Shown in pieces: positions 31,754 through 58,295 of a DNA stretch of 64,000 nucleotides. Origin of the DNA: an uncultured Micavibrio sp. (GTDB lineage Bacteria; Pseudomonadota; Alphaproteobacteria; Micavibrionales; Micavibrionaceae); assembly GCA_964353185.1 (NCBI GenBank), contig CAYGUV010000001.1, positions 128,620-192,619 on the forward strand, given 5' to 3'. The notes below the pieces were generated by a model. It did no database searches and was not told the DNA's origin. It saw nothing but the letters and a program-made list of their open reading frames with translations. Made by a program: the position numbers and the translations under genes. Numbering within the stretch: the first letter of the stretch is position 1; each line of letters begins with the position of its first letter.

Positions 31754-36401
<4,648 letters not shown>

Positions 36402-45750: not shown

Positions 45751-46389
45751 TTATTGGCTGACCCATAAAATGCGTGCGATCCAGCTTATTTCATTTTGAG
45801 GTATCTTACGATTTTCATGGTTAGGGTTTAAGGATAAAAGTTCAATAAGGCTTTCGTTCTGGTGGACCAACTCTTTCGCCATAACTTCACCATTAGCTGT
45901 TTTAACAATGACTCGATCCCCTTTACGAACAGATGATTTGGGAGAGACCACTAAAATATCATTTTGACGATATAAAGGTTCCATAGAATCTCCATTAATA
46001 CGCAAGGCGTATGTTCCATCATCTTTAGATTCAAATTCAGGAAATTCAATATCATCCCAGCTATCCCCATCGGGATAGCCTTGTTCATCAAAAAATCCAA
46101 AGCTTCCTGCTTGAGCAAACCCAATAACAGGTATTGTTTTTTTCTGTGCTAATTCGCTTTCTTCATCAACTAGCGCAACAAATTCAACCATTTGTGCTCC
46201 TGTTGCATTGAGAATTCTTGAGATGCTTTCTGTCGATGGCCATCTTGGTTTTCCATCAGGACCAAATCTTTTACTTTTATTAAAAGAAGTGGGGTCCAAG
46301 CCGGATTGTTTGGCCAAACCCGATGGACTGTAGCCAAAGGTTGAGGCCAGACGATCAACAGCACGCCAAATTTGTTCATGTGTAAGCAT
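45751..46389 (-). CDS. LexA/CI-like repressor: N-terminal HTH plus C-terminal S24 peptidase domain
   Basis: C-terminal GDSMEP (Ser nucleophile) and a downstream Lys region (VIVKT). N-terminal SPSGLAKQSGLDPTSFNKSKR HTH-like segment. Confidence 0.8.
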   Translation of the reverse strand: MLTHEQIWRAVDRLASTFGYSPSGLAKQSGLDPTSFNKSKRFGPDGKPRWPSTESISRILNATGAQMVEFVALVDEESELAQKKTIPVIGFAQAGSFGFFDEQGYPDGDSWDDIEFPEFESKDDGTYALRINGDSMEPLYRQNDILVVSPKSSVRKGDRVIVKTANGEVMAKELVHQNESLIELLSLNPNHENRKIPQNEISWIARILWVSQ

Positions 46390-46471
46390 GTATATCTCCT
46401 TAACAACCGCTCTAGGATTAAACTCCCATTTTTAAAAGTAAATGTAAATAGGAAAAAATTCATATTATTTC

Positions 46472-46500
46472 TTGACAATAGGTATATTATCCTATTTATT
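46472..46500 (+). promoter_or_regulatory. candidate promoter/operator for the rightward portal operon
   Basis: TTGACA (46472-46477), 17 nt spacer, TTTATT. Inverted repeat AATAGG-N8-CCTATT (46477-46496) lies in the spacer. Shares CTTGACAATA with the site at 50602. Confidence 0.45.
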
Positions 46501-46540
46501 GGTATTAATGAACAAGATTTTAAAAATAAGAAAGAGCGGT

Positions 46541-46972
46541 ATGAACAAAAGCAAACACAAAAACCAACATGATAAACAGACTGTGCCATTTGGAGATGCT
46601 ACAGAGGCTTGGTTCTGGTTTATTAAAGCACAAGAAGCACGAAATGATGGTGCGCGATATACCGCTGGAATGTCTCTTTTACCTCGTCCTTGTGAGCCTT
46701 CTGATTTTTTAAAGATTTTAGATCGTCTATATAGAAATAGAATTTTACTAAGAGATCATTTCTTAGTTCTAAGACACTATGGGCGTCGGCAGCTTGCTCC
46801 TGACAATAGGCGTGTGAAAGAATCTATTGCCTTTAAATTATGGAACGAAGCCTTTGAAAAAATTGAGCCAATATTAATCAAGAAAAATATCGTTCAAAAA
46901 AAAAGCGCCACCATTTTTTATCCGGCTGAATTTAAAAATAATGAAAATTATAAAAATGAAGCTTTCAGATAA
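46541..46972 (+). CDS. hypothetical protein, first gene of the phage-like operon (possible DNA-binding regulator or small-terminase candidate)
   Basis: ATG at 46541 preceded by a purine-rich AAGAAAGAG. Basic protein. No family confidently recognised. Confidence 0.5.
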   Translation: MNKSKHKNQHDKQTVPFGDATEAWFWFIKAQEARNDGARYTAGMSLLPRPCEPSDFLKILDRLYRNRILLRDHFLVLRHYGRRQLAPDNRRVKESIAFKLWNEAFEKIEPILIKKNIVQKKSATIFYPAEFKNNENYKNEAFR

Positions 46973-47379
46973 TGGAAAGAAAAAATAGAAGATTGTGGGT
47001 CGCCTTTACAGGGAAGACAGATATTTGGTATCTAAAATTTTTGAACAAAGAATTTAGGCATTGTTTTATCATTCTGGATGATGTGAATCATTGGATAACA
47101 ATTGATCCGCTATCTTCATCAACGGAGATAGAGGTGATTAATAAAAAAGACTATTCCCAAGATTTACCCTCATGGTTTCAGGAAATAGGATTTAAGCTAG
47201 TCGAAACAAAATTTTACATTCCATCAGCCAAATCACTTCCTCTTAGATTATTAAATTGTGTGGAGATAGCTAAAAATATTATAGGCATTCAAAATTTTTT
47301 TATTCTAACACCATACCAACTTTTCAAATTTTTAAATCAAAACAAAAGAAAGGAAATAGAACATGGGAAGTTTATTTAG
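46972..47379 (+). CDS. hypothetical protein (His...Cys pattern FRHCFII / NCVEIAKNIIGI)
   Basis: TAATG-type coupling to the upstream gene. No confident family. Confidence 0.5.
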   Translation: MERKNRRLWVAFTGKTDIWYLKFLNKEFRHCFIILDDVNHWITIDPLSSSTEIEVINKKDYSQDLPSWFQEIGFKLVETKFYIPSAKSLPLRLLNCVEIAKNIIGIQNFFILTPYQLFKFLNQNKRKEIEHGKFI

Positions 47380-47611
47380 TAGCCCTAAAAGACCAAATAT
47401 AAGACCAATAGTTAATTCTTCAACGCAGAATAAAGATATTGAGGTAAATCCCGCCACAGCTGTTATTGAAAGTGGAAACGTGAATAAAATACGCGAGAAT
47501 AATTTATTAAAACGATCAAGAGGAACCACAGGAACAATTTTAACGGGTTTTAACGGTATTTTAGGTGACCAACCAGAGGGCATTCCTCAAAAAAAACTAT
47601 TAGGAGAATAA
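47363..47611 (+). CDS. small phage protein with RSRGTTGTILTG motif
   Basis: N-terminal MGSLFSSPK and a basic R.RG..(S/T)TILTG motif recur in small podovirus proteins, as far as I recall. Function unknown. Confidence 0.5.
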   Translation: MGSLFSSPKRPNIRPIVNSSTQNKDIEVNPATAVIESGNVNKIRENNLLKRSRGTTGTILTGFNGILGDQPEGIPQKKLLGE

Positions 47612-47612
47612 A

Positions 47613-49142
47613 TTGGATAAACAAGAAATAAAAAATATTAATGATCCTGTACATTTAGGTGCAATATTAGACCGATATGAAAGAGCCATTAATAAAAGAA
47701 AGCCATGGGAAGCTATTGTTCAGGAGTGTTACACTTATACGTATCCACAAAGATCTTCTTCCTCTTTGTTTGGATATAAATCAGGAAATATTAAAACAGA
47801 CTTATACGATGCAACTGCAACAGATGCGGTTGATCAATTAGCGGCAAGTTTATTAGGAAATCTTACGCCCGCTTGGACACAGTGGTTTGGATTTAAAGCT
47901 GGGCCAGAGCTATCAAAAGCGGAATCTGAAAAAATCACACCTTTACTTGAAAATATAGCAAAAAAAATTCAATCGCACTTTGACAGATCAAATTTTAGCG
48001 TTGAAATACATCAATGTTTTTTAGATTTGATTATTGGAGGAACTGCTACATTATATGTTGAAGAAACTTTACCTGGCGCATTATCTTCCTTAAAATTTTC
48101 TGCAATTCCAATACAAGAAGTTGCGTTGGAAGAGGATGGTAATGGGTTTTTAAAAGGGTCTTTTCGTCATTTAAACTTAACATTATCACAAATTAAATCA
48201 CGATATAAAGGTGTAGAGTTACCATTAAATCTAACTAAGTCTGGGGGTTGCGAAGTATCAAAAACCTTTAAAATTCTTGAAACGGTAATTCCTCAAGATA
48301 ACGTTTATGAATTTTATGCTATTTTAATAGAAGAATCGAACCCACTCTTACTCTCAACAGGATATTTTGATCAGTCACCTGCTATTTCATTTCGATGGAT
48401 GAAATCGCCCGGGGAAATATATGGTCGTTCCCCAGTAATGAAGGCGTTACCAGATATTAAAACAGCTAATAAGGTTGTAGAACTCATCTTAAAAAACGCT
48501 TCTATTGCGGTTACAGGTATTTGGCAAGCTGATGATGATGGTGTGCTCAACCCAGCAAATATTGAGCTTGTCCCTGGAGCTATTATTCCTAAAGCGGTCG
48601 GTTCTCAAGGGTTGCGGGCGTTAGACATGCCTGGGCGGTTTGATGTGTCGGAATTGATATTGAAAGATTTGCGTCAAAAAATACGTGATTCTTTACTTTC
48701 TGACAAATTGGTGAATGTTATTGATAAGCGTATGACTGCAACAGAAGTATTAGAGCGATCGTCACAGATGGCTTTATTATTAGGGGCAACATATGGACGC
48801 TTACAATCTGAATTATTAACACCTCTTATTCTACGCGCTTTTAATATATTAAAACGACGTGGTGAAATTCCTGATATTGATTTGGATGGCCGAACTGTTG
48901 TTATAGATTATCGTTCACCATTGGCCAAAGCCCAATCACAAAAGGATATTCAAAATATATTTTTGTGGCTTGATAGTGTTAAGTCTATTGGGGGATCAGC
49001 ATCTCAATTTGTTGATGTTGAAAAAACAGTTGAATATATTGCGGATACTCTGGGCGTTCCCAAAGATTTGGTTGCTAAAAATAATACTTCTTTAGAATAT
49101 CTGGTATCAAGCTTACCTAATCTGGAGGTTAATAATGCTTAA
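47613..49142 (+). CDS. phage portal protein (T7 gp8-type head-to-tail connector family)
   Basis: 509 aa. KPWEAIVQECYTYTYPQR and LYDATATDAVDQLAASLLGNLTPAWTQWF resemble the head-tail connector family. TTG start with AGGAGA 5 nt upstream. Confidence 0.8.
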   Translation: MDKQEIKNINDPVHLGAILDRYERAINKRKPWEAIVQECYTYTYPQRSSSSLFGYKSGNIKTDLYDATATDAVDQLAASLLGNLTPAWTQWFGFKAGPELSKAESEKITPLLENIAKKIQSHFDRSNFSVEIHQCFLDLIIGGTATLYVEETLPGALSSLKFSAIPIQEVALEEDGNGFLKGSFRHLNLTLSQIKSRYKGVELPLNLTKSGGCEVSKTFKILETVIPQDNVYEFYAILIEESNPLLLSTGYFDQSPAISFRWMKSPGEIYGRSPVMKALPDIKTANKVVELILKNASIAVTGIWQADDDGVLNPANIELVPGAIIPKAVGSQGLRALDMPGRFDVSELILKDLRQKIRDSLLSDKLVNVIDKRMTATEVLERSSQMALLLGATYGRLQSELLTPLILRAFNILKRRGEIPDIDLDGRTVVIDYRSPLAKAQSQKDIQNIFLWLDSVKSIGGSASQFVDVEKTVEYIADTLGVPKDLVAKNNTSLEYLVSSLPNLEVNNA

Positions 49143-49410
49143 TTTTCTTAGAAAATCACCTATTGATGCTGTCAATAACTATTCAGAAAATATTGAAAAT
49201 GCACGTTATTTTTCGAAAGCTGATAGAAGTGATATTGAAAAAATATTAAAGCGCGTTTTCCTCACTGAAGATGGGAAAAAAGCATTAGCATACTTACAGT
49301 TTTTAAGTACCTATAAAACACTTAATTATAACGCCAGTAAACAACATCTTTATTACAATGAAGGGCAGCGCGCCTTTGTAGCAAACATAATAAAAATCAT
49401 TTCAACCTAA
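49135..49410 (+). CDS. small phage protein, Bbp19-like pattern
   Basis: VFLTEDGKKALAYL ... NEGQRAFVANIIKII resembles the Bbp19-type small proteins of BPP-1-like podoviruses (from memory). 8-nt overlap with the portal gene. Confidence 0.45.
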   Translation: MLNFLRKSPIDAVNNYSENIENARYFSKADRSDIEKILKRVFLTEDGKKALAYLQFLSTYKTLNYNASKQHLYYNEGQRAFVANIIKIIST

Positions 49411-49440
49411 ATATACATCATTTTAAAAGGAGAAAATATA

Positions 49441-50079
49441 ATGAATGATACATTACTTGATGATGAAATTCCTGAAAAATTCAAAAATAAAGAAACAGGA
49501 GAAGTAAATTTAAATGCAATGGTAAAGTCTTACAAAGAATTAGAAAGTAAGATGTCAAAAAGCCCCGCTTTGCCTGAAACCGCAGAAGAATATTGCGTGG
49601 ATTGCGAACATGGTTTATTTCAAGATGATAAAGAGCTTAACCAAAAAATGTTTGAAAAGGGGTTTAGTCAAGATCAGGTTCAGTTTGTTTACGACATAGC
49701 TGCTGAAAAATTGGTTCCTTTAGCGGTAGAAATTGCTGGTAATTTCCAAGCAGATCGTGAGATTGAAAAATTAGTAGAGCATTTTGGTGGAGTAGAGAAA
49801 TGGAAAGAAATTTCTAAACAGCTTTTGATCTATGGACAAAAAAATCTTTCAAACAATGTGCTTGATACACTGACTAGCTCATATGATGGGGTCATTGCAC
49901 TTTATAACATGATGAAAGGGAATGAACCTATGATTAGTTCTGGAGAAGGTAATCTTGTAGGAGGGTCCGAGAGAGAAGTGCAATCAATGATGCGTGACCC
50001 TAAATATTGGCGTGATAAAGACCCATCTTTTATTGCAGAAGTAACTCAAAAATTTGAAAGCCTTTACGGTAATAAGTAA
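49441..50079 (+). CDS. putative capsid scaffolding protein
   Basis: Acidic, helical 212-aa protein between portal and capsid genes. PEKFKNKETGEVNLNAMVKSYKELESK N-terminus is typical of podovirus scaffolds. Strong AAAGGAGA SD. Confidence 0.55.
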   Translation: MNDTLLDDEIPEKFKNKETGEVNLNAMVKSYKELESKMSKSPALPETAEEYCVDCEHGLFQDDKELNQKMFEKGFSQDQVQFVYDIAAEKLVPLAVEIAGNFQADREIEKLVEHFGGVEKWKEISKQLLIYGQKNLSNNVLDTLTSSYDGVIALYNMMKGNEPMISSGEGNLVGGSEREVQSMMRDPKYWRDKDPSFIAEVTQKFESLYGNK

Positions 50080-50101
50080 AGCTATTTAAATATTATAAAA
50101 T

Positions 50102-50126
50102 AAAGGCCCTTGAAAGAGGGCCTTTT
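50102..50126. terminator. bidirectional hairpin terminator between the scaffold gene and the PilZ gene
   Basis: Perfect 9-bp stem AAAGGCCCT/AGGGCCTTT with a 6-nt loop. T-rich on both flanks when read on either strand. Confidence 0.8.
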
Positions 50127-50147
50127 ATTAATCAACAATTTAATTAC

Positions 50148-50531
50148 TTATCTTTGGGAATTTGCAAATTCCTGAGCCATGAAATCATCCAATACATGTT
50201 GGAATTGTTTATCAACTTGCTGTGTCAACGGTGCAAATTGTAGGGCGAACTTGCCATTTCCCTTGCGCAACACGCGTCCGTTGTGTGATACGTTCATGAT
50301 CTTATCAGCCACTTTAAACTTAATTGTTATTTCTTTAACTTCGTTGATGCCAAAGGCACGATCATCACCATGTAATAAGATACCGCCCTGGCTCCAATTT
50401 TCTACTGGATAAGACATGCTGTCGATAATGGCTATGCAACTATCAATTTCGCGGCGCTCATGCGAGCGACGTGAATCAATGTCGTCATTACTGGCTGATA
50501 TTTTTAAGCCTTCTAAAATGTCAGTAATCAT
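50148..50531 (-). CDS. stand-alone PilZ-domain protein (predicted c-di-GMP receptor)
   Basis: RRSHERR (RxxxR) followed by NWSQGG (D/N-x-S-x-x-G). 127 aa. AAGGGAGA SD. Opposite strand to the phage operons. Confidence 0.7.
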   Translation of the reverse strand: MITDILEGLKISASNDDIDSRRSHERREIDSCIAIIDSMSYPVENWSQGGILLHGDDRAFGINEVKEITIKFKVADKIMNVSHNGRVLRKGNGKFALQFAPLTQQVDKQFQHVLDDFMAQEFANSQR

Positions 50532-50602
50532 AGTTCTCCCTTTGTTAAAACCACTTTATATACATAAAAACTAAAATAAAAGAAAAAATTTAATTTTATC
50601 CC

Positions 50603-50632
50603 TTGACAATATAGGAATATATTCATATATTG
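50603..50632 (+). promoter_or_regulatory. candidate capsid-operon promoter overlapped by a 26-bp near-perfect palindrome (operator candidate)
   Basis: TTGACA (50603-50608), 17 nt spacer, TATATT (50626-50631). CAATATAGGAATATATTCATATATTG (50607-50632) is symmetric at 12 of 13 pairs. Confidence 0.55.
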
Positions 50633-50813
50633 TTTTTATCAACGCCACAAAAGTATATTTTTTACTTAAATAAGCGTTTTTTCCCGATATTAAAATCAGA
50701 GAACTATTTTGCCTGATTCTCAAAAAGCCATAAATAGCGGCTAGCTATTCTATGAAAACTTTACCTATGCGGGATTTATTTTCAAAACAACATATATTCA
50801 AGGAGAATAAATT

Positions 50814-51644
50814 ATGCCAACTATTGATCAGGCTTTTATTAAACAGTTTGAACGTGAGGTCCATGAAGCTTTTCAACGTCAAGGTTCAAAATTACGCAAC
50901 ACAGTAAGAACAATCAACAATGTTAAGGGATCATCTGCCGTTTTCCAAAAAGTTGGAAAAGGGACTGCGTCTACGAAAGAGCAACATGGAATGGTTCCTG
51001 TGATGAATTTAGACCATTCAAATGTTGAATGTGTTTTACAAGATTTTTACGCTGGTGATTGGATTGATCACTTAGATACTTTAAAAACAAATATTGATGA
51101 GCGTCAGGTCATTGCAAATGCAGGTGCAAATGCATTGGGACGTAAAAGTGATGAAATGATTATTACCGCTTTAGAAGGTGCAACAGAAAATGTAATTAAT
51201 GACGGTAATGTAGGTCTTACGAAAGATAAAATTTTAGAAGCGTTTGAAACATTTGGTTCTAGTGATGTGCCTGATGATGGGCAGCGTTTTGGTGTAGTCG
51301 GTTGGAAACAATGGAGCGATCTTTTACAAATTGAAGAATTCATTAATTCTGATTATATTGGACAAACAGATCTACCATATTCAGGAATCACGCAAGCGAA
51401 GATGTGGCTAGGAACGGTCTGGGTACCCCATTCTGGATTGCCTCTTGATGTTAATGATATTCGTTCTTGTTATTTCTATCACAAAACTGCGGTAGGGCAC
51501 GCAGTGGGTAATGATATTGAAACTGATATTAGCTGGCATGGTGATCGTGCTGCTCATTTTGTCAATAATATGATGAGTCAAGGGTCTGTCCTTATCGATG
51601 AAGCAGGCGTTATTAAAATTGGATGTGATGAAACGCCTGATTAA
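50814..51644 (+). CDS. phage major capsid protein
   Basis: 276 aa directly after the scaffold module, with the strongest SD (AAGGAGA). The N-terminal IKQFEREVHEAFQRQGSKLRNTVR pattern resembles capsid proteins of small podoviruses. Confidence 0.7.
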   Translation: MPTIDQAFIKQFEREVHEAFQRQGSKLRNTVRTINNVKGSSAVFQKVGKGTASTKEQHGMVPVMNLDHSNVECVLQDFYAGDWIDHLDTLKTNIDERQVIANAGANALGRKSDEMIITALEGATENVINDGNVGLTKDKILEAFETFGSSDVPDDGQRFGVVGWKQWSDLLQIEEFINSDYIGQTDLPYSGITQAKMWLGTVWVPHSGLPLDVNDIRSCYFYHKTAVGHAVGNDIETDISWHGDRAAHFVNNMMSQGSVLIDEAGVIKIGCDETPD

Positions 51645-51903
51645 AACACCTTCGTTCAACTATAAACACAATTAATAATCATATTACGAGTATTTTAAAA
51701 TATGAATAATGTGGTTTTACTGAATGTAGATATAGATAAATTTTCTGTTACTATTGAACAGATACTTCACATGATGCCGTTATGCTTATTCCTTAAAAAA
51801 TGTAGAATATTGCATAGCTATAAAGCTTGAGCCTGAATTTATTTCTTTTGCTCGCTTTGTCCTTCCTTCGTTTGGCATCATTTTATTTATATCTCATCCC
51901 TGA

Positions 51904-51945
51904 TGGCTCTCCTTTTTTATAAAAGGGGGGCCATTAATTTTTTTT
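51904..51945 (+). terminator. strong rho-independent terminator downstream of the capsid gene
   Basis: 13-bp stem TGGCTCTCCTTTT/AAAAGGGGGGCCA (two G-U pairs), TTAT loop, then TTAATTTTTTTT. Confidence 0.8.
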
Positions 51946-51960: not shown

Positions 51961-52530
51961 ATGGCTTTAACAAATATTGAAATTTGTGCGCGCGCACTCA
52001 TCCGTTTGGGCGCAAATCCTATAGCAGAATTTAACGATGGATCATCAGAGTCAGAGATAGCATATGCTTTATATGGTTCAACAAAAAATGCATTGCTTTC
52101 TTCTTATCCGTGGTCTTTTGCAACACGGCAAATAACTTTATTGCCATCTAACGCAAATCCTATTGCAGACTATTCTTATGCGTATGATTTACCCACTGAT
52201 ATATTAAGGGCTGTTTCATGCGGATCAGGTAGACGTGGACGTGGTGTAGAGTTTAAAATATTAAACGGGAAGCTACATACAAATTACAAAGACATTATTT
52301 TTACCTATATTGCAGAAATAGATGAAGAATATTTTCCTCCATTCTTCTCTTCTGCACTTATTACTAAACTGGCTTCTGAATTTAGTATTCCTATTACAGA
52401 AAGTACGTCACGGACTGAAATGCTTTATAATTTAGCAGAAAAAGAAGTTGAAAAAGCACGTCTTATAGATGCGCAACAAGATACCCCAAATCGTATTGAA
52501 AATTTTACCCTTATTGATGTGAGGTCATAA
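51961..52530 (+). CDS. putative tail tubular protein A / adaptor (T7 gp11-like position and size)
   Basis: 189 aa. The N-terminal LTNIEICARALIRLGANPIAEFNDGS pattern resembles podovirus gp11-like proteins. Sits after the capsid gene. Confidence 0.5.
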   Translation: MALTNIEICARALIRLGANPIAEFNDGSSESEIAYALYGSTKNALLSSYPWSFATRQITLLPSNANPIADYSYAYDLPTDILRAVSCGSGRRGRGVEFKILNGKLHTNYKDIIFTYIAEIDEEYFPPFFSSALITKLASEFSIPITESTSRTEMLYNLAEKEVEKARLIDAQQDTPNRIENFTLIDVRS

Positions 52531-52531
52531 C

Positions 52532-54430
52532 ATGACAAGAATTCGACAAGTTGAAAGTAATTTTACTGCGGGTGAAGTATCAAGTGATTTGATGGGAAGA
52601 GGTGATTTAGTCGCTTATGCCAATGGAGCTGAAAAAATACGTAACATGTTCATACACCCGACAGGGGGTTTAACAAGACGTGCAGGATTAGAGTATATTG
52701 ATACAGCATCAGGAGACGGACGATTAATCCCATTTGAATTTAATGCTGAACAAACATACTTATTAGTTGTTACGAGTGAAAAAATTGATATTTATTATAA
52801 TGATGTAAAGATTGATACTTTGCTAACGCCTTGGCTAGAGGACGATATAAAACAGCTTGCGTGGACACAAAGCGCGGATACTTTACTTTTAACCCATCCT
52901 GATTACCCGCCTAAAAAGCTGTTAAGAAATAATGGTAATTTATTTGCTTTGGAAGATTGGGTATTTCATGAAGAAAAATTTACTATTTTTCAACCATATT
53001 ATAAATTTGCCAATAGTGATGTAACAGTAACCCCAGATGATTTAAAAGGGACGCTTACTTTGACAGCATCTGCTGATGTATTTACCCCTGATCATGTTGG
53101 TATACGCCTTCAAATTAGTGGTGAACAGGGTGATATTGTTAGTTTTATTTCACCTACACAAGTTATGTTAGAGATGATACGTGATTTACCTTCATTGGAT
53201 GCGACTATTGATTGGCAAGAACAGGTATTCTCTCCCTTGAGAGGTTATCCCACTACTGTTGCGTTTCACCAAGACAGATTAGTTATAGGAGGGTCGCGTG
53301 ATTTACCAAATAGATTATGGCTATCAAAATCAGGAGACCTATTTAATTTTTATTTGGGAACTGGGTTAGACGACGAAGCAATAGAATTTGCAATATTATC
53401 TGACCAAGTTAATGCGATAAGAGGCATTTTTTCTGGACGTCATTTACAAATTTTTACAAGTGGTGCTGAATGGATGGTTACAGGAAGCCCACTTACACCT
53501 ACAACGGTTCAACTAAACCGTCAAACACGTGTTGGATCCGTAATAGATAGATATGTGCCGCCTGTATCTGTTGATGGTGCAACGGTCTTTATTGGGCGTA
53601 ACGGTCAAGAAATTAGGGAATTTTTATATACAGATATTGAACAAGCATATACAGCGGTTGATTTGGCTTTAGTATCACGTCATATCCCTGTTAATGTAAT
53701 TGATCAAGATTACGATGCAAAAAGAAGATTGGTTTTTGTTGTTCGCGATGATGGGAAATTTGCCACTATGACATTCTATCGTGCTGAACAAGTAAGGGCT
53801 TGGACGCTTCATGATACCAATGGTTCAGTCCTAGCCGTTACTGTTACAGGAGATGATGTTTATTTACTAATCCGAAGAGATGATAAAATTTTTATCGAAA
53901 AATTTAATCAAGATATTGGTCTAGATTCCGCTCTAACTTGGGAAAAGGAAACGGCCCAATTAAACTGGTCTGGACTTGATCATTTGGAGGGGCAAACTAT
54001 TTCTGTAGTAGCTGATGGTATAGCCTTGATAGATCAATATCCTGTGACAAATGGACAAATTACATTATCGATGCCTGCTCAAGAAATTATTGCAGGGCTA
54101 AAATTCACGAGTGAGCTTACCCCTTTGCCGCCACCTTTAAATGAACGCTTGGCAAATAGAAAAATTAGGCTTATTGAAGGATTGTTTCGATTGCAAGATT
54201 CCCAAATATTGCAATTAGATGTGGGACAAGGCTTGCGCAATATTTCGTTATCAAAATGCGGCCAAATTACAACTTCAAATGAAGCATTGGATAAAGTTTC
54301 TGGCGATGTAAAAGTGCGCGCTTTAGGATGGCAAAATAACTGCCAAAAACCTTTATGGCATATTAAACAAGATGAGCCTTACCAATTTACACTTTTGGCT
54401 GTCAGCCTAGAGCTTAAAATAAATGATTAA
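52532..54430 (+). CDS. putative tail tubular protein B / nozzle (T7 gp12-like position)
   Basis: 632 aa. The N-terminal SNFTAGEVSSDLMGRGDLVAYANGAEKIRNMFIHPTGGLTRRAG pattern resembles podovirus nozzle proteins. Translationally coupled to the previous gene. Confidence 0.5.
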   Translation: MTRIRQVESNFTAGEVSSDLMGRGDLVAYANGAEKIRNMFIHPTGGLTRRAGLEYIDTASGDGRLIPFEFNAEQTYLLVVTSEKIDIYYNDVKIDTLLTPWLEDDIKQLAWTQSADTLLLTHPDYPPKKLLRNNGNLFALEDWVFHEEKFTIFQPYYKFANSDVTVTPDDLKGTLTLTASADVFTPDHVGIRLQISGEQGDIVSFISPTQVMLEMIRDLPSLDATIDWQEQVFSPLRGYPTTVAFHQDRLVIGGSRDLPNRLWLSKSGDLFNFYLGTGLDDEAIEFAILSDQVNAIRGIFSGRHLQIFTSGAEWMVTGSPLTPTTVQLNRQTRVGSVIDRYVPPVSVDGATVFIGRNGQEIREFLYTDIEQAYTAVDLALVSRHIPVNVIDQDYDAKRRLVFVVRDDGKFATMTFYRAEQVRAWTLHDTNGSVLAVTVTGDDVYLLIRRDDKIFIEKFNQDIGLDSALTWEKETAQLNWSGLDHLEGQTISVVADGIALIDQYPVTNGQITLSMPAQEIIAGLKFTSELTPLPPPLNERLANRKIRLIEGLFRLQDSQILQLDVGQGLRNISLSKCGQITTSNEALDKVSGDVKVRALGWQNNCQKPLWHIKQDEPYQFTLLAVSLELKIND

Positions 54431-54447
54431 CAAATAGGAGACTTATA

Positions 54448-54951
54448 ATGGGCAATATAGCACCCGTTGCATTACAAGCTGTACAAGCTTTTCAAACGAT
54501 ATCATCCGTAGCGCAAGTTTTTGATGACAGTAATAATGAATTATCAATACAGCAACTAAAGCAGCAGCAAGCATTACAGCAACAACAAGCCACGCAAGAT
54601 GCACAATTAGCGCGTGAAGAAATAGCGTTAAAATCCGCAGATGCGGAACGTTTAAGAAAATCTGCCTTAAAGCGTGCCGTTGCAAGCCGCCGTGCAGAAT
54701 TTGGAGCGAGCGGCGTGCGAAGCGGAGCAGGATCTTCACAAGCTATACTATTAGGGCTGTTTGATGAGTCTGAAGAAGAAAAGAAGCAACGAGAATTTCT
54801 AGATAATTTAAAATTAAAAAGTCTAGATCAAAATATAACACAGTTAAGCGCTATAAATACCTTAACCAAAACACAATTAGAACAAAGACAAAATTTGAAA
54901 AGAACATCTGATCTTCTAAGTAGTACAGATGATCTATTAAGCCTCCTGTAA
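54448..54951 (+). CDS. hypothetical Gln-rich coiled-coil phage protein (possible internal virion protein)
   Basis: 167 aa with QQLKQQQALQQQQATQ and RRAEFGASGVRSGAGSSQAILLGL segments. No confident family. Confidence 0.5.
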   Translation: MGNIAPVALQAVQAFQTISSVAQVFDDSNNELSIQQLKQQQALQQQQATQDAQLAREEIALKSADAERLRKSALKRAVASRRAEFGASGVRSGAGSSQAILLGLFDESEEEKKQREFLDNLKLKSLDQNITQLSAINTLTKTQLEQRQNLKRTSDLLSSTDDLLSLL

Positions 54952-54953
54952 AA

Positions 54954-55253
54954 TTAATTACTTTTTAAAAGATCCTGTAATACTTTTTCGGAAGTTTTAC
55001 CTTTAGGTGACATATTGTTATGAAGATCATTTGTATGTGTTTCTTTATAAATTTTTATACGATCTTCATTGGGTGTTTTTGTAACTTGAAAAGGGTTCTT
55101 TTGGGTATCCTTTTGGTTCCATGTTTCTTTGGGATCTTGTCTTTCTTTTTTTAGCTTATCCATATTATTTTCAAATTTTTTATACGTTTCATCTGCCAAA
55201 GCGATGGGCGTGAAAAGCATATTGATTAATGCAAAGAGTAAGGTTTTTTTCAT
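54954..55253 (-). CDS. small secreted Lys-rich protein (opposite-strand insert)
   Basis: Signal peptide MKKTLLFALINMLFTPIALA-DE. Start placed at the ATG at 55253 rather than the upstream GTG at 55292. Confidence 0.5.
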   Translation of the reverse strand: MKKTLLFALINMLFTPIALADETYKKFENNMDKLKKERQDPKETWNQKDTQKNPFQVTKTPNEDRIKIYKETHTNDLHNNMSPKGKTSEKVLQDLLKSN

Positions 55254-55359
55254 TTTTTTATAAAATAGAAAAACGTAAGCAGTGTCAAACACCTATTGAT
55301 ATACCGCCGTATGGAAAATCCCATATTTAACAAATCATTAAGAATATTAGAGAACAATC

Positions 55360-56838
55360 TTGAAAACATATAACTTTAGGGAATTTTTAACGCAATGGAA
55401 CAAACTGCAAAACTTCGAAACGCCGTCCATTCATACGAACATGGCAGATTGGCTAGAAAATTGCTACGAAACTGGTCAGACGCGGCTTTTGCTGATGGCG
55501 TTTCGTGCGTGCGGGAAATCAACACTTGTGGGGTTGTTCTCGGCATGGCTTCTATTGCGGCAACCGGATTCCCGCATCCTGGTCTTAGCTGCAGAATCGA
55601 ACCTCGCATCAAAGATGGTTCGCAACATAAAGCGAATAATAGAATTGCATCCTTTTACGATGCATCTAATTCCCAATAAAAAAGATCAATGGGCTTCTGA
55701 TAGATTTACAATCAATCGAGAGAAAGAGTTACGTGATCCTTCTGTTTTAGCCTGTGGAATAACTGGAAATGCAACAGGTAGTCGCGCTGACATTATAATT
55801 TATGATGATGTAGAGGTGCCAAACACATCCAATACACCTGATAAAAGAGAGAGCTTGAGAGAGCGATTACAAGAAAGTAATTTTATTTTAGCGCCAGGAG
55901 GAACGCAGCTTTATGTTGGGACACCCCATAGTTATTTTTCAATTTATGCAAAAAATCCTAGGTCTGAGGTTGGTGAAAATAACATTTTCTTAAATGGGTA
56001 TAAGCGATACGAACAACCTATTTTAACGAAAAATAATAAAAGCACTTGGCCAGAACAATTTTCTTCTAAGATCATTGACCAAATTCGCAAACAATCAGGA
56101 CCAAATAAGTTTGCTGCACAAATGATGTTAAATCCTGTCAATGTTCTAAATGGCCGTTTAAATACAGAGTTACTTCAATACTATAATAAAGATTTAGATT
56201 ATTTAGAATCGAGACAGCGTATATATTTGAGTTTAAATAAACAAAAGTTAGTGTCTTGCAGCGCATGGTGGGATCCTGCATTTGGTGTTGGGGAAACAGG
56301 TGATAACAGTGTTCTTGCAATTGTGTTTTCAGATGAAAATAGTAATTACTATCTTCATCATCTTTCTTACATAAAAGTTCGCGCTAAACTGGGAGAGGAT
56401 GAGGCAACACTCCAATGCCAACACGTTGCAAAAATAGCTAAGAAGTTTTTTGTTCCTTCTGTTGCGGTCGAAACAAATGGAATTGGTAAATTTCTACCTG
56501 CTATTTTACGAAGAGAAATATCTGCGCTTAATATTCCGTGTGCCGTTTTGGAAAAAACGAGCACTAAATCAAAAAGTGATAGAATCTTAGAAGCATTTGA
56601 CGTGGTGCTTGCGGCGCAGGCGCTGTTTGTGCATGACAGTGTTAAGGATACCCCCTTTCTTCTTGAGATGTCGGAATGGCAGCCAAATAAAAAAGGGGTG
56701 AAAGATGATGGCATGGACGCAGTATCAGGGGCCTTATCTTTAGAACCGGTTCGAATTCAAAGATCTGTCGTCTCCGCACGACGAAAATGGTTTTTAGGTA
56801 GCAATACTTATACAGCAGATACTGACTTCAAAATTTAA
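55360..56838 (+). CDS. phage terminase large subunit
   Basis: Walker A AFRACGKST, Walker B-like IIIYDDVE, and a C-terminal RNaseH-like nuclease region (WWDPAFG ... DDGMDA). TTG start, and this start call is uncertain. Confidence 0.85.
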   Translation: MKTYNFREFLTQWNKLQNFETPSIHTNMADWLENCYETGQTRLLLMAFRACGKSTLVGLFSAWLLLRQPDSRILVLAAESNLASKMVRNIKRIIELHPFTMHLIPNKKDQWASDRFTINREKELRDPSVLACGITGNATGSRADIIIYDDVEVPNTSNTPDKRESLRERLQESNFILAPGGTQLYVGTPHSYFSIYAKNPRSEVGENNIFLNGYKRYEQPILTKNNKSTWPEQFSSKIIDQIRKQSGPNKFAAQMMLNPVNVLNGRLNTELLQYYNKDLDYLESRQRIYLSLNKQKLVSCSAWWDPAFGVGETGDNSVLAIVFSDENSNYYLHHLSYIKVRAKLGEDEATLQCQHVAKIAKKFFVPSVAVETNGIGKFLPAILRREISALNIPCAVLEKTSTKSKSDRILEAFDVVLAAQALFVHDSVKDTPFLLEMSEWQPNKKGVKDDGMDAVSGALSLEPVRIQRSVVSARRKWFLGSNTYTADTDFKI

Positions 56839-56861
56839 ATATAAAATGAGAGAGAATTTAA

Positions 56862-57203
56862 ATGGAAACAATCCTAGATAGCGGATTGATATGGTGGATT
56901 AGTGTGATTGAAATACCTGCTATCTCAACATTATTTTTTTTGATATTAAGATTACGCGCGCTTAATGACCATAATATTACAGAGATACGCGGCCTTCTTG
57001 AGCTAAGAAATAATCAAATAAAAGAATCTTTATCTGCATTTCAATTAGAAACAGCACGAACCTATGCGTGCATTAATGATGTTAAAGACATTGAGCTACG
57101 CATCATAAAACATCTTCTGCGAATCGAAGAAAAGTTAGATAGAACCGCGATGAAAGCAGAAGTCTTAGAGGCCACAAATAATAAATATAATAGAAAGGAA
57201 TAA
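56862..57203 (+). CDS. membrane-anchored coiled-coil protein (lysis-associated, spanin- or holin-accessory-like)
   Basis: N-terminal TM (LIWWISVIEIPAISTLFFLIL) plus coiled coil. Immediately upstream of the endolysin gene. Confidence 0.4.
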   Translation: METILDSGLIWWISVIEIPAISTLFFLILRLRALNDHNITEIRGLLELRNNQIKESLSAFQLETARTYACINDVKDIELRIIKHLLRIEEKLDRTAMKAEVLEATNNKYNRKE

Positions 57204-57205
57204 TC

Positions 57206-57709
57206 ATGCTTCATTACTTATTTGGAAGAAAAGAAATAGAGAAAAAAACACAGAAAACAGTCTCAGTTTACGATGAGCAAAAAGAATATTACAAACAATT
57301 GGAAATTGACGTTTTGGCCCGTACCATTTTTGGCGAAGCAAGGGGAGAACCTTTGGAAGGACAAGAGGCTGTTGCTTGTGTTGTTTTAAATCGTGTAAAA
57401 ATTGCAAAAATAAAAGGTCGATATTGGTGGGGAAATAACATTATTGGTGTTTGTCAAAAGCCATATCAATTCTCATGCTGGAATAAGAATGATCCAAGCT
57501 ATAAAAGATTAACTTCGGTTACCGATAAAGATAAAAATTTTCAAGCAGCACTTCGTATTGCGAAAGATGCGGTGGAAGAAAATCTTTGGGACTGTACTGA
57601 TGGCGCTACGCATTATCATGCTGACTATGTTGATCCGTTTTGGACCAAAGGGGAGAAACCCATAAAAAAAATTGGACGTCATATATTCTATAAATTAGTC
57701 GAGGTTTAA
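57206..57709 (+). CDS. cell wall hydrolase, SleB/Hydrolase_2 family (endolysin)
   Basis: LARTIFGEARGEPLEGQEAVACVVLNRV and PYQFSCWN motifs. Confidence 0.85.
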   Translation: MLHYLFGRKEIEKKTQKTVSVYDEQKEYYKQLEIDVLARTIFGEARGEPLEGQEAVACVVLNRVKIAKIKGRYWWGNNIIGVCQKPYQFSCWNKNDPSYKRLTSVTDKDKNFQAALRIAKDAVEENLWDCTDGATHYHADYVDPFWTKGEKPIKKIGRHIFYKLVEV

Positions 57710-57710
57710 T

Positions 57711-58295
57711 ATGATCTCAACCGTTCTTGGTAAAATTGGATTACCGATACTAATTGAATTCGTCGCGCAGGCTTTGGGGCGTGTTGACCACCCTGTTGCC
57801 AGCAGCGCAAAAAAAGCTTTAGAAGAAGTTGAGGCCGCACTTGCTGGAGGGCTTATTTCTAACGAACAAATGGCTGAAGCCAATAGACACGCTGAAGAAA
57901 TGGCACGTATTAATATGCAACAATATGAAGCAAGCCTATCTGAAATTAATCAATCTTTACGCGCAGAAATTGCCTCTAACGATATATATGTTCGTCGTAT
58001 GCGCCCTACCTTTGGGTATTTAATGGCGGCAACATGGGCGGCGCAAATGTTTGGAATTGCGTATGTTATAATTTTCAAAACTGAAACGGCTGCTTACGTT
58101 ATGACTGGTATGTCTGCGCTTAGTACTATTTGGGCGGTCGGCCTATCTGTTCTGGGCATATATGTTTATAAACGTAGCGAGGATAAAAAGATATTAAATC
58201 TGCCGATAGGTAGTGTTTTAGAGGCTAAAATAGATAAAAATATTATTCCCAAAGCGATTAAAACAAACACTAAAGAAATTCAGTTAAACGATTAA
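57711..58295 (+). CDS. three-TM holin (family named for gene-transfer-agent release)
   Basis: An N-terminal soluble region, then RRMRPTFGYLMAATWAAQMFGIAYVI and two further TM segments. Pattern matches the 3TM holin family as I recall it. Confidence 0.6.
   Translation: MISTVLGKIGLPILIEFVAQALGRVDHPVASSAKKALEEVEAALAGGLISNEQMAEANRHAEEMARINMQQYEASLSEINQSLRAEIASNDIYVRRMRPTFGYLMAATWAAQMFGIAYVIIFKTETAAYVMTGMSALSTIWAVGLSVLGIYVYKRSEDKKILNLPIGSVLEAKIDKNIIPKAIKTNTKEIQLND

Follow-up and report, generated by a model that had tools for sequence, protein, structure and literature searches.

A stretch of 64,000 nucleotides from an uncultured Micavibrio sp. (hereafter the window) raises the question of why housekeeping genes should enclose the head, tail and lysis genes of a short-tailed phage. 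A sequence-only reading had offered two answers, a domesticated element resembling gene transfer agents (GTAs) and a capsid-forming satellite in need of helper fibres. Judging from the genes and their comparison across genomes, we consider the locus to be probably a domesticated, vertically inherited, podovirus-derived particle system of the GTA or PBSX type, for which DNA packaging and transfer are predictions.

Gene content and setting of the locus

Annotation confirmed a phage-type gene cluster of 12.5 kb (window positions 45751-58295), encoding an S24 repressor, a T7-type portal, Bbp19, scaffold, capsid, gp11 adaptor, gp12 nozzle, large terminase (TerL), a membrane protein, a SleB-type endolysin and a 3TM holin. 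The podovirus-type order proposed earlier, from portal to holin, is borne out by Pfam and PHROG matches; this core set stands, but the cI-like S24 gene at the left end and an antisense PilZ gene had been missed. The cluster is flanked by nadK and pyrE (NF001729, 285 bits) on the left and by EamA and icd genes on the right. Its junctions are tight: 25 nt separate the end of pyrE from the S24 gene, and the 3' end of the holin gene overlaps the convergent eamA by 12 nt. We found no tRNA across the whole window and no att-like direct repeats flanking the locus. The GC content of the locus is 0.360 vs 0.379 for the rest of the window.

The reported lack of integrase, replication, fibre and small-terminase genes also holds: searches of Pfam, PHROGs and NCBIfam with the ORFs of the locus gave no hit to any integrase, polymerase, primase, helicase, small-terminase or fibre family. 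Excisionase, a rep gene and gp15/16 were absent from the locus in the same databases and in comparisons with ORFs of related phage contigs (L081, L110, L128, L157 and L109). These query ORFs, which included primase and gp15/16-sized ORFs, matched the window solely within 46571-57703.

Repressor, promoter and first operon genes

A cI/UmuD-like S24 repressor with an HTH and a self-cleaving peptidase (45751-46389, minus strand; PF00717, 1e-24) is divergent from the structural operon. It retains an Ala94-Gly95 cleavage site and a G-D-S135-M catalytic-serine motif, shows omega of 0.02-0.13, and accompanies the element in Micavibrionales and Azospirillum-type loci, with orf166 as its neighbour in 62 genome loci as well as in IMG/VR loci. 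Its identification as LexA was rejected (TIGR00498, 28 bits vs a cutoff of 111).

Reading of the regulatory region (46390-46540, plus strand) together with a family-wide promoter alignment revealed a conserved -35 element, CTTGAC, at 46471-46476. The palindrome TAGGTATATTATCCTA at 46479-46494, in the promoter spacer, is a candidate repressor operator, and the region also contains an upstream TAGGATTAAACTCCCA and a GTAAATAGGAAAAAATTCATA box. A LexA box, GAAC-N7-GAAC, which matches the Caulobacter SOS box GTTCN7GTTC and is of the alphaproteobacterial type, is present at the promoter in 67 of 83 loci (chance expectation 0.014 per 330 nt), in most Micavibrionales loci 32-33 nt past CTTGAC. The window and two relatives, L001 and L002, have no such box; the window keeps one GAAC half-site (46510-46513). 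The promoter layout is kept across genomes of 36% to 72% GC.

The operon opens with orf166, a four-helix protein (46541-46972, plus strand) conserved in 65-66 loci, whose ORF begins at TTG 46472 and whose probable start is ATG 46541. It has omega of 0.09-0.17 and no match in Pfam, PHROG, NCBIfam, PDB or BFVD, including a Foldseek search with its AF2 model (pLDDT 76). Profile and structure searches identified no small terminase in the locus, and orf166 is a candidate regulator or small terminase. The next gene, orf135 (46972-47379, plus strand), encodes a conserved small protein whose alignments show invariant His30 and Cys96 and a nearly invariant Cys31. Its relatives form 1035 representative clusters at E<=1e-3; its AF2 model (pLDDT 48) is unusable, and Pfam, PHROG, NCBIfam, PDB, PDB-profile and Foldseek searches gave no match. 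Then comes orf82 (47363-47611, plus strand; about 50 loci, weak phrog_831 match), the end of which abuts the portal start.

Head, tail, packaging and lysis genes

The portal, of T7 gp8 type (47613-49142, plus strand; PF12236, 1.9e-126; omega 0.04-0.07), is followed on the same strand by a Bbp19-like small protein (49135-49410; PF25181, 4.6e-9) and a scaffold of T7 gp9 type (49441-50079; PF05396, 3.7e-12). Antisense between scaffold and capsid lies a gene for a single-domain PilZ protein, a c-di-GMP receptor (50148-50531, minus strand). All 22 family members scanned match PF07238 (best 3e-7), the motifs RxxxR and NxSxxG are invariant or nearly so, omega is 0.03-0.08, and the gene is present in 101/101 loci with capsid identity of at least 70%. 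Where the scaffold and PilZ genes converge, a hairpin (50102-50125; 9-bp stem including 5 GC pairs, followed by a T-run) is terminator-like when scored on the minus strand, i.e. for PilZ.

The major capsid protein (50814-51644, plus strand; PF19821, 2.4e-79; omega 0.01-0.05) has 4623 homologues and is 77-80% identical across Micavibrionales. Its gene is preceded by the best sigma-70-like promoter of the region (50603-50631, plus strand; TTGACA-17-TATATT, 11/12 matches), and the capsid unit ends in an intrinsic terminator (51901-51936, plus strand; 16-bp stem, then T8). This terminator sits in a stretch that aligns with L001 and L002 with high conservation, in a position analogous to T7 T-phi.

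Further along the plus strand are a gp11-like tail adaptor, or tail tubular protein A (51961-52530; phrog_394, 2.7e-43), a gp12-like nozzle, or tail tubular protein B (52532-54430; PF25675, 1.5e-11; phrog_376, 2.6e-142), and a coiled-coil protein, orf167 (54448-54951; about 60 loci). The earlier statement that gp14-16-like proteins are lacking stands for gp15/16 but not for gp14: orf167 weakly matches phrog_418 'internal virion protein' (E=0.0026) and is possibly a gp14-like internal or ejection protein. Pelagibacter phage Hodr has an ORF of about 160 aa (32972-33451) in the same position after its nozzle. TerL (55360-56838, plus strand, TTG start) matches phrog_38 (7e-87) over residues 5-476 and is full length, with Walker A AFRACGKST, Terminase_6N, 6C and T7 RNaseH-like domains and omega of 0.055-0.09.

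The lysis cassette, on the plus strand, comprises orf113, a spanin- or antiholin-like protein with an N-terminal TM and a coiled coil (56862-57203; phrog_29007, 2.6e-21), a SleB-type cell-wall hydrolase, the endolysin (57206-57709; PF07486, 1.5e-21), 40% identical to its Hodr homologue, and a 3TM holin (57711-58295; GTA_holin_3TM PF11351, 3.2e-10; phrog_3427 holin).

Vertical inheritance at one site

Capsid relatives were found in 342 species-representative genomes, counted as carriers in a capsid scan. The order purC (plus), nadK, pyrE and S24 (all minus), element, eamA (minus) is shared by about 45 full-length loci of different species, and site and gene order are alike in practically every full-length locus of Micavibrionales; the locus is not strain-variable. 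The same architecture is seen in Azospirillum, Skermanella, Roseospira and Thalassospiraceae, and homologous copies of 62-73% GC lie on contigs with Azospirillum, Skermanella, Roseospira/Rhodospira and Thalassospiraceae capsids. Host and element distances co-vary (Mantel r=0.81, reached by 0/2000 permutations), with a p-distance of 0.20 for the capsid vs 0.38 for the host flanks, and element GC tracks flank GC (r=0.95 over 36-59%).

Omega is 0.01-0.17 across element genes, like that of the flanking nadK and pyrE, with medians of 0.05-0.17 over 3-33 close pairs. Between L001 and L002 it is 0.010 for the capsid, 0.041 for the portal, 0.058 for the nozzle, 0.055 for TerL and 0.030 for SleB, at dS (0.8-1.3) similar to that of the comparison genes nadK (0.089) and pyrE (0.035). 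In many Micavibrio-like bacteria, with relatives in Azospirillum and allies, the element is passed on vertically in a single chromosomal position, and purifying selection on it is strong. A fixed site, purifying selection and lack of early genes were what the sequence-only reading had expected of a domesticated GTA-like element, and all three are seen here.

Losses in the window copy

The structural proteins of the window are not truncated, their lengths being close to family medians: portal 509 vs 515 aa, capsid 276 vs 277, gp11 189 vs 189, nozzle 632 vs 632 and TerL 492 vs 496. The claim that every gene is full length fails for a 79-aa post-capsid gene (phrog_18004), of which alignment with L001 and L002 shows a pseudogene remnant (51645-51798, plus strand). 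Local alignment and three-frame translation show its 5' end deleted and stops in all frames. A pectate-lyase tailspike, encoded in the cluster of 66 of 79 relatives, is missing from the window's sublineage (the window, L001 and L002), together with the LexA box and an ORF of about 100 aa upstream of TerL. The slot that the tailspike and this ORF fill in most relatives is taken by orf112, a small secreted protein with a signal-peptide-like N-terminus (54954-55292, minus strand), with homologues solely in L001 and L002. The absence of a fibre from the window is a secondary loss within its sublineage.

The window copy may therefore be impaired, having no tailspike, LexA box or 79-aa gene. It could even be a recently inactivated remnant of a functional family, heading to decay with particle function already broken. 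The 79-aa gene is a pseudogene in the window alone and retained in 147/151 relatives, and loss does happen, relative L056 being clearly decayed. Pairwise dS from the window to its relatives is saturated (about 2), so omega does not resolve selection on the window's terminal branch and a recent relaxation would be hidden. We nevertheless regard inactivation as unlikely. The remaining 15 window genes are full length and free of frameshifts and stops. The spike-less state is old, as the window has it in common with L001 and L002 at dS>2, and omega in this sublineage is low in all genes (0.01-0.15 between L001 and L002). Thirteen compact spike-less loci, with capsids 64% to 94% identical to that of the window, keep the other genes, and RcGTA provides a precedent for attachment proteins encoded outside the main cluster.

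Proposed working of the particle system

The domesticated particle system that we favour would descend from a short-tailed phage with a T7-like head-tail module, now a set of chromosomal genes in Micavibrionales that has homologous counterparts in Azospirillaceae, Rhodospirillaceae and Thalassospiraceae. The retained portal, scaffold, capsid, adaptor, nozzle, gp14-like protein, TerL, holin/endolysin and divergent cI-like S24 repressor would be the minimum for building and releasing DNA-filled podovirus-like particles. The motifs suggest that the S24 repressor, at TAGG-N8-CCTA palindromes, keeps the operon promoter off, and that in most relatives host LexA also represses through GAAC-N7-GAAC over the -10/+1 region. 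Upon DNA damage, active RecA would lead both repressors to self-cleave, turning the cluster on in a fraction of cells. Capsids, encoded by intact and constrained genes and, for the capsid gene, expressed from a strong promoter and terminator of its own, would then assemble. TerL would package chromosomal DNA in situ, at random or directionally from a pac site, the only option given that an excision or replication module is lacking, and holin and the SleB-type lysin would lyse the producer. More speculatively, since gp15/gp16 are missing, DNA would reach the periplasm at most and require recipient uptake functions, as for RcGTA, while the PilZ c-di-GMP receptor might be a host signalling input. 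The window copy is a further-reduced variant, in which a receptor-binding protein, if any, would be encoded outside the locus unless the nozzle itself binds.

The particles might instead serve mainly as SOS-induced killers of the PBSX/pyocin kind, or as an aid to Micavibrio predation, with tailspike depolymerase and lysins targeting competitors or prey. The observed SOS and S24-repressor motifs recall the regulation of pyocins and PBSX, most copies have the pectate-lyase tailspike, variable inserts carry genes for PG-binding and GH108 lysozyme-like proteins, and many hosts are, by their organism names, obligate predators. However, constraint is strongest on capsid, portal and TerL, a DNA-packaging machine that tailocins do not have, and Azospirillum and Skermanella, which are not predatory, carry the element too. 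We judge a weapon role quite improbable as the main function; it overlaps with the favoured reading, as PBSX itself packages host DNA.

A mobile element repeatedly hitting the pyrE/eamA site, either a temperate phage or a cf-PICI-like satellite borrowing helper fibres, would account for the cI-like repressor and the fibre-less window copy, and one distant relative, L128, has a tyrosine integrase about 3 kb upstream. Host genes of moaA type lie between that integrase and the element, and neither an integrase, an excisionase, a primase/rep gene nor an att repeat is present in the window. The gaps at the junctions span about 110-360 bp (S24/orf166 promoter region) and 6-119 bp (holin-EamA, seven loci); the large inserts tested hold IS1595 transposases, a GNAT protein and PG-binding genes, in no case an integrase or replication gene. 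With host and element co-diverging, and the element carrying its own adaptor, nozzle, lysis genes and usually a tailspike, mobility is largely contradicted and very improbable, and the helper-dependent satellite suggested earlier is rejected. An ordinary functionless prophage remnant, suggested by the missing integrase and replication genes and by the classification of such regions as proviruses in IMG/VR, is highly improbable and already contradicted by 15-18 genes that hundreds of species keep in the same order and place, by their low omega, co-divergence with the host and GC amelioration from 36% to 72%, since neutral remnants would not stay intact over 40-50% amino-acid divergence in neighbouring housekeeping proteins.

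Comparison with known systems

The nearest isolated phage is Hodr, HTVC010P-type pelagiphages being more distant, and in an NJ tree a long branch separates the tightly clustered element capsids from Hodr. Unlike the element, Hodr has large post-nozzle ORFs of 784 and 1248 aa (gp15/16 size), and phage contig L110, of the same head-tail type, has a primase and post-nozzle ORFs of 750 and 780 aa. L109 and L110, the only contigs with replication genes, share high identity in the capsid alone (portal 28% identical). Related phage genomes are 33-35 kb, and the DNA capacity of the capsid probably exceeds the 12.5-18 kb of the element, which sets it apart from classical GTAs.

A review of viriforms treats RcGTA, BaGTA and BhGTA, describes B. 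grahamii particles with long non-contractile tails and terms no GTA podovirus-like, which fits the earlier remark that described GTAs are long-tailed; the searchable literature yielded no description of such a podovirus-derived system. The locus makes a strong candidate for a GTA-like system under DNA-damage control that has so far gone undescribed. Whereas RcGTA is under CtrA and quorum control, the motifs of the element point to SOS and cI-type control, resembling that of prophages or pyocins.

Gene content of the locus

The element occupies positions 45751-58295. ORF listing and profile searches bear out nearly every item of the gene list that an earlier reading of the sequence alone (hereafter the sequence-only reading) had proposed for it. 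On its left, nadK (44278-45063) and pyrE (45064-45726; NF001729, 285 bits) lie on the reverse strand, as does the adjoining gene for a cI-like S24 peptidase repressor (45751-46389). Three small conserved ORFs (46541-46972, 46972-47379 and 47363-47611) precede a T7-type portal (47613-49142; PF12236, 2e-126), Bbp19 (49135-49410), a T7-type scaffold (49441-50079; PF05396), a PilZ gene of 127 codons on the opposite strand (50148-50531), the capsid (50814-51644; PF19821, 2e-79), a gp11-like adaptor (51961-52530; phrog_394, 3e-43) and a gp12-like nozzle (52532-54430; phrog_376, 3e-142). The head and tail genes stand in the order of a T7-like module (gp8 portal, gp9 scaffold, capsid, gp11 adaptor, gp12 nozzle). 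The module is followed by a 167-residue coiled-coil protein with a weak match to "internal virion protein" (orf167, 54448-54951), a small secreted protein on the reverse strand (54954-55292; signal peptide MKKTLLFALINMLFTPIALA), the large terminase TerL (55360-56838; phrog_38, 7e-87), a membrane protein (orf113, 56862-57203), a SleB-type hydrolase (57206-57709) and a three-transmembrane holin of the PF11351 family (57711-58295), the 3' end of which overlaps the convergent eamA gene; icd comes next.

The absences listed in the same reading hold as well: there is no tRNA in the 64-kb window, the locus has no att-like flanking repeats, and its composition is close to that of the host (GC 0.360 in the locus, 0.379 in the rest of the window). 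No ORF of the locus matched integrase, excisionase, replication, RNA polymerase, DNA polymerase, fibre or gp15/16 families in Pfam, PHROGs or NCBIfam. When the ORFs of related phage contigs were compared with the window, they matched inside the locus only, and neither the tailspike and the 79-residue gene of relatives (see below) nor other related-phage ORFs were found elsewhere in the 64 kb. None of the attributes of an intact T7-like or HTVC010P-like prophage (a length of about 34-40 kb, replication genes, gp15/gp16, a fibre or spike, an integrase) is present in these 12.5 kb.

The TerL frame is intact (492 residues), and TerL profiles align to it from residue 5. Its true start is TTG, which is why, in public assemblies (L162, L163), gene callers have split this gene into an out-of-frame ORF of 94 residues and an ORF of 392 residues. 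Automated annotation probably under-reports this terminase.

Two of the small ORFs were searched further for function. No significant match to orf166 was obtained in Pfam, PHROGs, NCBIfam, profile searches of PDB sequences, or Foldseek searches of PDB and BFVD; it is modelled by AF2 as a four-helix protein (pLDDT 76). An exhaustive HMMER search recovered homologues of orf135 in 1035 representative clusters, versus 4 by a word-indexed search. No Pfam domains were found in these homologues, including the longer ones, and the orf135 profile had no PDB match. From the invariant His30 and Cys96 we would guess at a permuted papain-like fold; an AF2 model built on the shallow (4-hit) alignment was set aside (pLDDT 48).

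Relationship to podoviruses

The nearest isolated phage is the Pelagibacter phage EXVC031P Hodr, and the HTVC010P-type pelagiphages are more distant. Identity to Hodr is 50% for the capsid, 33% for the portal, 29% for gp11, 30-36% for the nozzle and 40% for SleB; TerL had no detectable similarity to any Hodr ORF. Both share the order portal, scaffold, capsid, ORF of 79-81 residues, gp11, gp12 nozzle and a post-nozzle ORF of about 160 residues, and both have a SleB-type lysin, although Hodr carries extra small ORFs between its portal and capsid. The post-nozzle ORFs of Hodr (34.2 kb) comprise 160, 784, 1248 and 350 residues; by length and location, the first three are similar to gp14/15/16. Those of 784, 1248 and 350 residues are absent from the element. 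The Hodr terminase, assigned by position only, is an ORF of about 500 residues upstream of the portal, whereas TerL of the element lies downstream of the tail genes. Phages of the Hodr/HTVC010P type are about 34 kb long and have early genes, unlike the element. Compared with such phages, the element has lost the early and replication genes together with the two large core proteins, and its TerL has moved behind the tail genes.

Two IMG/VR contigs, L109 and L110 (16.8 and 33 kb), are of phage type: their capsids are 68-70% identical to that of the element and their portals only 28%. The longer one encodes a Toprim primase, an adjoining ORF of 598 residues and post-nozzle ORFs of 238, 750 and 780 residues; against the window its capsid is 69% identical and its portal only 28%. 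In a neighbor-joining capsid tree, built from this one gene and carrying no bootstrap support, the capsids of the element cluster tightly and are separated from Hodr by a long branch. L109 and L110 nest inside this cluster, beside the Micavibrionales clade of the same unbootstrapped tree, which suggests that capsid genes have been exchanged between the element and free phages. A 5-kb "Bacteriophage sp." record from human faeces (MT838907.1) comes nearer to the window than any phage isolate does, with an identity of 58% for its capsid and 51% for its portal. Its source may have been a gut alphaproteobacterium whose copy of the element was submitted under a phage name.

Distribution and synteny

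The capsid has 4623 database homologues, and the top 120 are 77-100% identical to it; many of these 120 lie on contigs of 0.2-2.4 Mb, that is, on chromosomal-scale assemblies. A scan of one genome per GTDB species placed capsid relatives in 342 genomes, and the best 80 of these are nearly all Micavibrio or Micavibrionales-type MAGs. In a tblastn survey of those loci, gene order and chromosomal site were identical in essentially all full-length loci: purC on the forward strand, nadK, pyrE and S24 on the reverse strand, then orf166, orf135, orf82, portal, Bbp19, scaffold and the reverse-strand PilZ gene, then capsid, gp11, nozzle, orf167 and, further on, TerL, orf113, SleB and holin, followed by a reverse-strand eamA. 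Gene lengths in these loci match those of the window. One MAG of an uncultured Micavibrio sp. (L056) carries a decayed copy at the same site, where portal, nozzle and TerL are gone and only scaffold fragments, PilZ, capsid, gp11 and holin remain; thus, the element can be lost.

IMG/VR contributed 114 related stretches. A subgroup of these with 62-73% GC has the same architecture, including a divergent S24 gene, orf166, orf135, the 79-residue gene, the tailspike and the lysis cassette. Exact-sequence look-up assigned capsids of this subgroup to Azospirillum, Skermanella, Roseospira, Rhodospira, Thalassospiraceae and Magnetovibrio; the Azospirillum species include brasilense, argentinense, baldaniorum, rugosum, canadense and others, with "MULTISPECIES" entries on 3-Mb replicons. 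Flanks visible in the loci of this subgroup differ from the pyrE/nadK flanks of Micavibrionales, so the two groups may have the element in common either by descent or by an old transfer.

Loci of the Thalassospiraceae/Magnetovibrio type (L157, L155) are rearranged, with TerL first and, further on, capsid, 79-residue gene, gp11 and nozzle, then portal and scaffold; gene order is therefore not fixed over the whole family. Several relatives carry inserted genes: a GNAT acetyltransferase-like gene of about 330 codons between adaptor and nozzle (L022:11988-12977, L017:14961-15953, and similar ORFs in L046 and L049), PG_binding_1 proteins (L001:17887-18786, L057:6004-7359) and a GH108 lysozyme-like protein (L057:8114-8767). 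These look like moron or cargo genes of the element.

Promoter region and internal signals

The S24 protein scores 28 bits in the LexA model, which has a cutoff of 111, and is not LexA; it has the Ala-Gly site and the GDSM serine motif. The divergent promoter region is strikingly conserved. It has a GTAAATAGGAAAAAAT box, a CTTGAC -35 element and palindromes of the TAGG-N8-CCTA type, one of which falls in the spacer from -35 to -10. In 67 of 83 loci there is also a GAAC-N7-GAAC motif with the consensus GAACATAAAGNGAAC, against a chance expectation of 0.014 per 330 nt; on the complementary strand it reads as the SOS box of Alphaproteobacteria, GTTCN7GTTC. The motif starts 32-33 nt past CTTGAC in most Micavibrionales loci, and 10-21 nt past it in those Azospirillum-/Skermanella-type loci that have it. 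The promoter layout is kept over genomes of 36-72% GC and is recognisable even in 70%-GC Azospirillum. In our reading, host LexA and the S24 protein of the element would both repress this promoter, and DNA damage would induce it. In two relatives, IS1595-family transposases lie between the S24 gene and the operon promoter (L008:4482-5441, L021:4245-5207) and may uncouple the repressor from its operator.

Three signals lie inside the cluster of the window: the convergent scaffold and PilZ genes are separated by a hairpin terminator (50102-50125), a promoter close to consensus follows at 50603-50631, and a terminator with a 16-bp stem occupies 51901-51936. As predicted elements, they would split the cluster into transcription units and probably raise capsid expression. 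The last one lies after the capsid gene, in a place similar to that of the T7 T-phi terminator. A sub-threshold Rfam match of the scaffold/PilZ hairpin to STnc100 was taken as spurious. The non-coding stretch at 51800-51960, after the capsid gene and a remnant of the 79-residue gene, is more conserved with the nearest relatives (L001 and L002) than neighboring coding DNA. Upstream of the terminator with the 16-bp stem, it includes another potential hairpin (AAAGCTTGAGC...GCTCGCTTT). The stretch had no Rfam match and might represent either a structured RNA or a terminator under regulation.

A possible link to c-di-GMP

The antisense gene of 127 codons encodes a genuine PilZ domain: all 22 members scanned match PF07238, and the residues of the RxxxR and NxSxxG motifs are invariant or nearly so. 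It is present in each of the 101 loci with a capsid identity of at least 70%. In the Azospirillum clade, the slot between scaffold and capsid holds instead a 784-residue Cache-HAMP-PAS-GGDEF-EAL protein (L111:6056-8410, and the same slot in L112, L120, L123, L129, L133, L134 and L135); in other lineages this slot is only about 150 bp. Two different c-di-GMP genes in one slot suggest that the second messenger may feed into particle production. c-di-GMP has been reported as a regulator of RcGTA.

Specific features of the window's copy

Between orf167 and TerL, 66 of 79 loci encode a conserved protein of 673-678 residues. It combines an N-terminal domain common to podovirus tail/tailspike PHROG families with a pectate-lyase beta-helix (PF12708) and is therefore a tailspike. 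In the window, L001 and L002, the opposite-strand small secreted protein replaces both the tailspike and an ORF of about 100 residues; this secreted protein (54954-55292) is about 40% identical among the three. The helical ORF of about 100 residues (phrog_31793), usually directly upstream of TerL in relatives, is a possible small terminase. Searches of Pfam, PHROGs and NCBIfam identified no small terminase in the locus of the window.

Thirteen loci are compact and spike-less. Their capsids are 64-94% identical to that of the window, and with this spread the loss of the tailspike was probably recurrent. The 79-residue gene follows the capsid in 147 of 151 loci; in the window alone it is reduced to a remnant (51645-51798) that has lost its 5' end and is interrupted by stop codons in all frames. 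The LexA box is missing from the window, L001 and L002 alike. At 46510-46513, within the region 46390-46540, the window retains one GAAC half-site, and only the element's own S24 repressor and a candidate operator are kept. A recent impairment of the window's copy is one way to read these differences, and we regard it as unlikely, if the least so of the alternatives. The spike-less state arose before the window's lineage separated from L001 and L002 (dS about 2), and the remaining genes of this sublineage are strongly constrained, as judged from the omega values of L001 and L002. Thus, the reduced form is apparently being kept, and a gene in another place might supply its receptor-binding protein.

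Selection and co-divergence

For the L001/L002 pair (dS 0.75-1.9), omega is 0.010 for the capsid, 0.041 for the portal, 0.058 for gp11 and nozzle, 0.055 for TerL, 0.030 for SleB and 0.032 for PilZ; the flanking genes give 0.089 (nadK), 0.035 (pyrE) and 0.038 (purC). Median omega over 3-33 close pairs per gene is 0.05-0.17. A purC value of 0.96 over close pairs was discarded, because ORF extension had given non-homologous N-termini. Capsid and portal are among the most constrained genes, and capsid, portal, scaffold and TerL are all present, which rules out a tailocin or another phage-tail-like bacteriocin. A killer or predation role of the PBSX or pyocin kind, in which particles would be released by lysis without propagating, shares several features with the arrangement proposed here (see the comparison below), and we consider it improbable.

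Mean protein distances of the element and of the host flanks are correlated over 41 loci (r=0.81), with none of 2000 Mantel permutations reaching this value. The median p-distance of the capsid is 0.20, versus 0.38 for the flanking housekeeping proteins; the capsid evolves more slowly. GC of the element tracks that of the flanks over 36-59% (r=0.95). The omega, Mantel and GC results are those predicted for long vertical residence under selection. They contradict both a neutral remnant, which we consider very improbable given low omega, host co-divergence and GC tracking, and a mobile phage or satellite that would have integrated repeatedly at the same site, which is equally improbable in view of selection and co-divergence. 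The sequence-only reading had expected a GTA-like element to be conserved at one site, under purifying selection and without early genes, and all three were found (omega 0.01-0.17, Mantel r=0.81).

Interpretation and significance

These findings agree with a particle system that derives from a podovirus, has been domesticated and is inherited vertically. Under the generic GTA definition that we used (Lang et al., ICTV viriforms), autonomous replication, excision and integration are lacking, and co-evolution with the host under purifying selection is found; the element appears to fit this definition at the genomic level, and partial signs of host control fit too. It cannot be called a GTA yet: the name would be premature because packaging and transfer are predictions, no small terminase was found, and the head is probably large enough for the whole locus of 12.5-18 kb, judging by the 33-35 kb genomes of phages with homologous capsids.

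Since there is no excision or replication module, TerL would have to act on the chromosome in situ, either by random headful or by directional pac-site packaging, and these two modes make distinguishable predictions. With gp15 and gp16 lost and a gp14-like protein kept, delivery might, speculatively, reach the periplasm only, as in RcGTA. The same combination offers a natural experiment on the podovirus ejection machinery needed when the recipient cooperates. Tentatively, and as a possibility that falls somewhat short of even, we propose an ancient, hitherto unrecognised third GTA lineage of Alphaproteobacteria, podovirus-derived and present in Micavibrionales and Rhodospirillales sensu lato, in which a LexA/cI-like switch would act after DNA damage under modulation by c-di-GMP, and heads of about 30 kb would be filled in situ with chromosomal DNA and deliver it only to the periplasm for competence-like uptake. 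If true, this would be a DNA-damage-triggered system of gene exchange and repair in clades for which Shakya et al. 2017 list only small RcGTA-homologue clusters.

In the open-access literature on Micavibrio, Micavibrionales, Azospirillum and Rhodospirillales in connection with GTA, prophage or podovirus, no description of the element was found. Such regions appear as proviruses in the output of prophage finders (IMG/VR), and papers on Azospirillum genomes have overlooked them. The genome paper on Azospirillum CBG497 notes a conserved "phage-related lysozyme" in the core of the genus, without other phage-related genes around it, and, citing earlier work, links the 10-kb Azospirillum GTA to RcGTA-like genes in prophage B510PP01. 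These RcGTA-like genes rule out identity of that GTA with the present element. The Azospirillum GTA particles are reportedly siphovirus-like. Shakya et al. 2017 found only small RcGTA-homologue clusters in Rhodospirillales and unclassified Micavibrio, and George et al. 2022 dealt with homologues of known GTA head and tail components. The 2022 viriform review covers three independently domesticated GTA lineages (RcGTA, BaGTA, BhGTA), describes B. grahamii particles with long non-contractile tails and calls no GTA podovirus-like, in agreement with the earlier remark that described GTAs are long-tailed.

We rate the element as an independently domesticated, GTA-like phage derivative. If active, it would represent a further domestication event, independent of the others and starting from a short-tailed phage of T7-like type. 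It would also carry GTA-like biology into Rhodospirillales and the predatory Micavibrionales, and tie particle production to SOS through a LexA box kept over genomes of 36-72% GC, so that the idea of a "GTA for DNA repair" becomes directly testable. Cultured, genetically tractable hosts would be at hand (Azospirillum brasilense, Micavibrio aeruginosavorus).

Comparison with known systems

RcGTA (Rhodogtaviriformidae; Rhodobacterales, Caulobacterales, Hyphomicrobiales) and the element are both chromosomally fixed clusters of head, tail and terminase genes without replication or integration genes. They also share vertical inheritance, purifying selection, a holin of the PF11351 family, release by lysis (predicted for the element from its genes) and possibly a c-di-GMP input. 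The structural genes differ: PF12236, PF05396, PF19821 and a gp11/gp12 stub tail in the element, versus an HK97 capsid with protease and a siphovirus tail in RcGTA. RcGTA-like head-tail homologues are absent, and the holin family alone is common to both. Control of the element is predicted to rest on a LexA box and S24, whereas RcGTA is controlled by CtrA, GafA and quorum sensing. Unlike in RcGTA, the lysis genes lie within the cluster, and the capsid is probably large (relatives package 33-35 kb), in contrast to about 4 kb in RcGTA. BaGTA (Bartonella) and BhGTA/VSH-1 (Brachyspira) are likewise independent domestications of tailed phages inherited with their host genus, but have no sequence relationship to the element; the phage-derived replication origin to which BaGTA is coupled has no visible counterpart here.

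The cf-PICI satellites share with the element a small cluster with capsid, portal, scaffold and terminase and without a replication polymerase. However, cf-PICIs have an integrase, primase/rep genes and att sites, and are mobile, strain-variable and tail-less, none of which is true of the element. An assignment to cf-PICI is thus rejected: integrase, rep and att are lacking, inheritance is vertical and the element has its own tail genes. PBSX-type prophages of Bacillus and the R/F pyocins have a fixed place in the chromosome, are induced by SOS via a repressor that is of S24 type or resembles LexA, leave the cell by lysis and do not propagate, as proposed here. PBSX packages host DNA. PBSX is myovirus-like and pyocins are headless, in contrast to the podovirus-like element, which is distributed over two or more orders of Alphaproteobacteria rather than a single genus.
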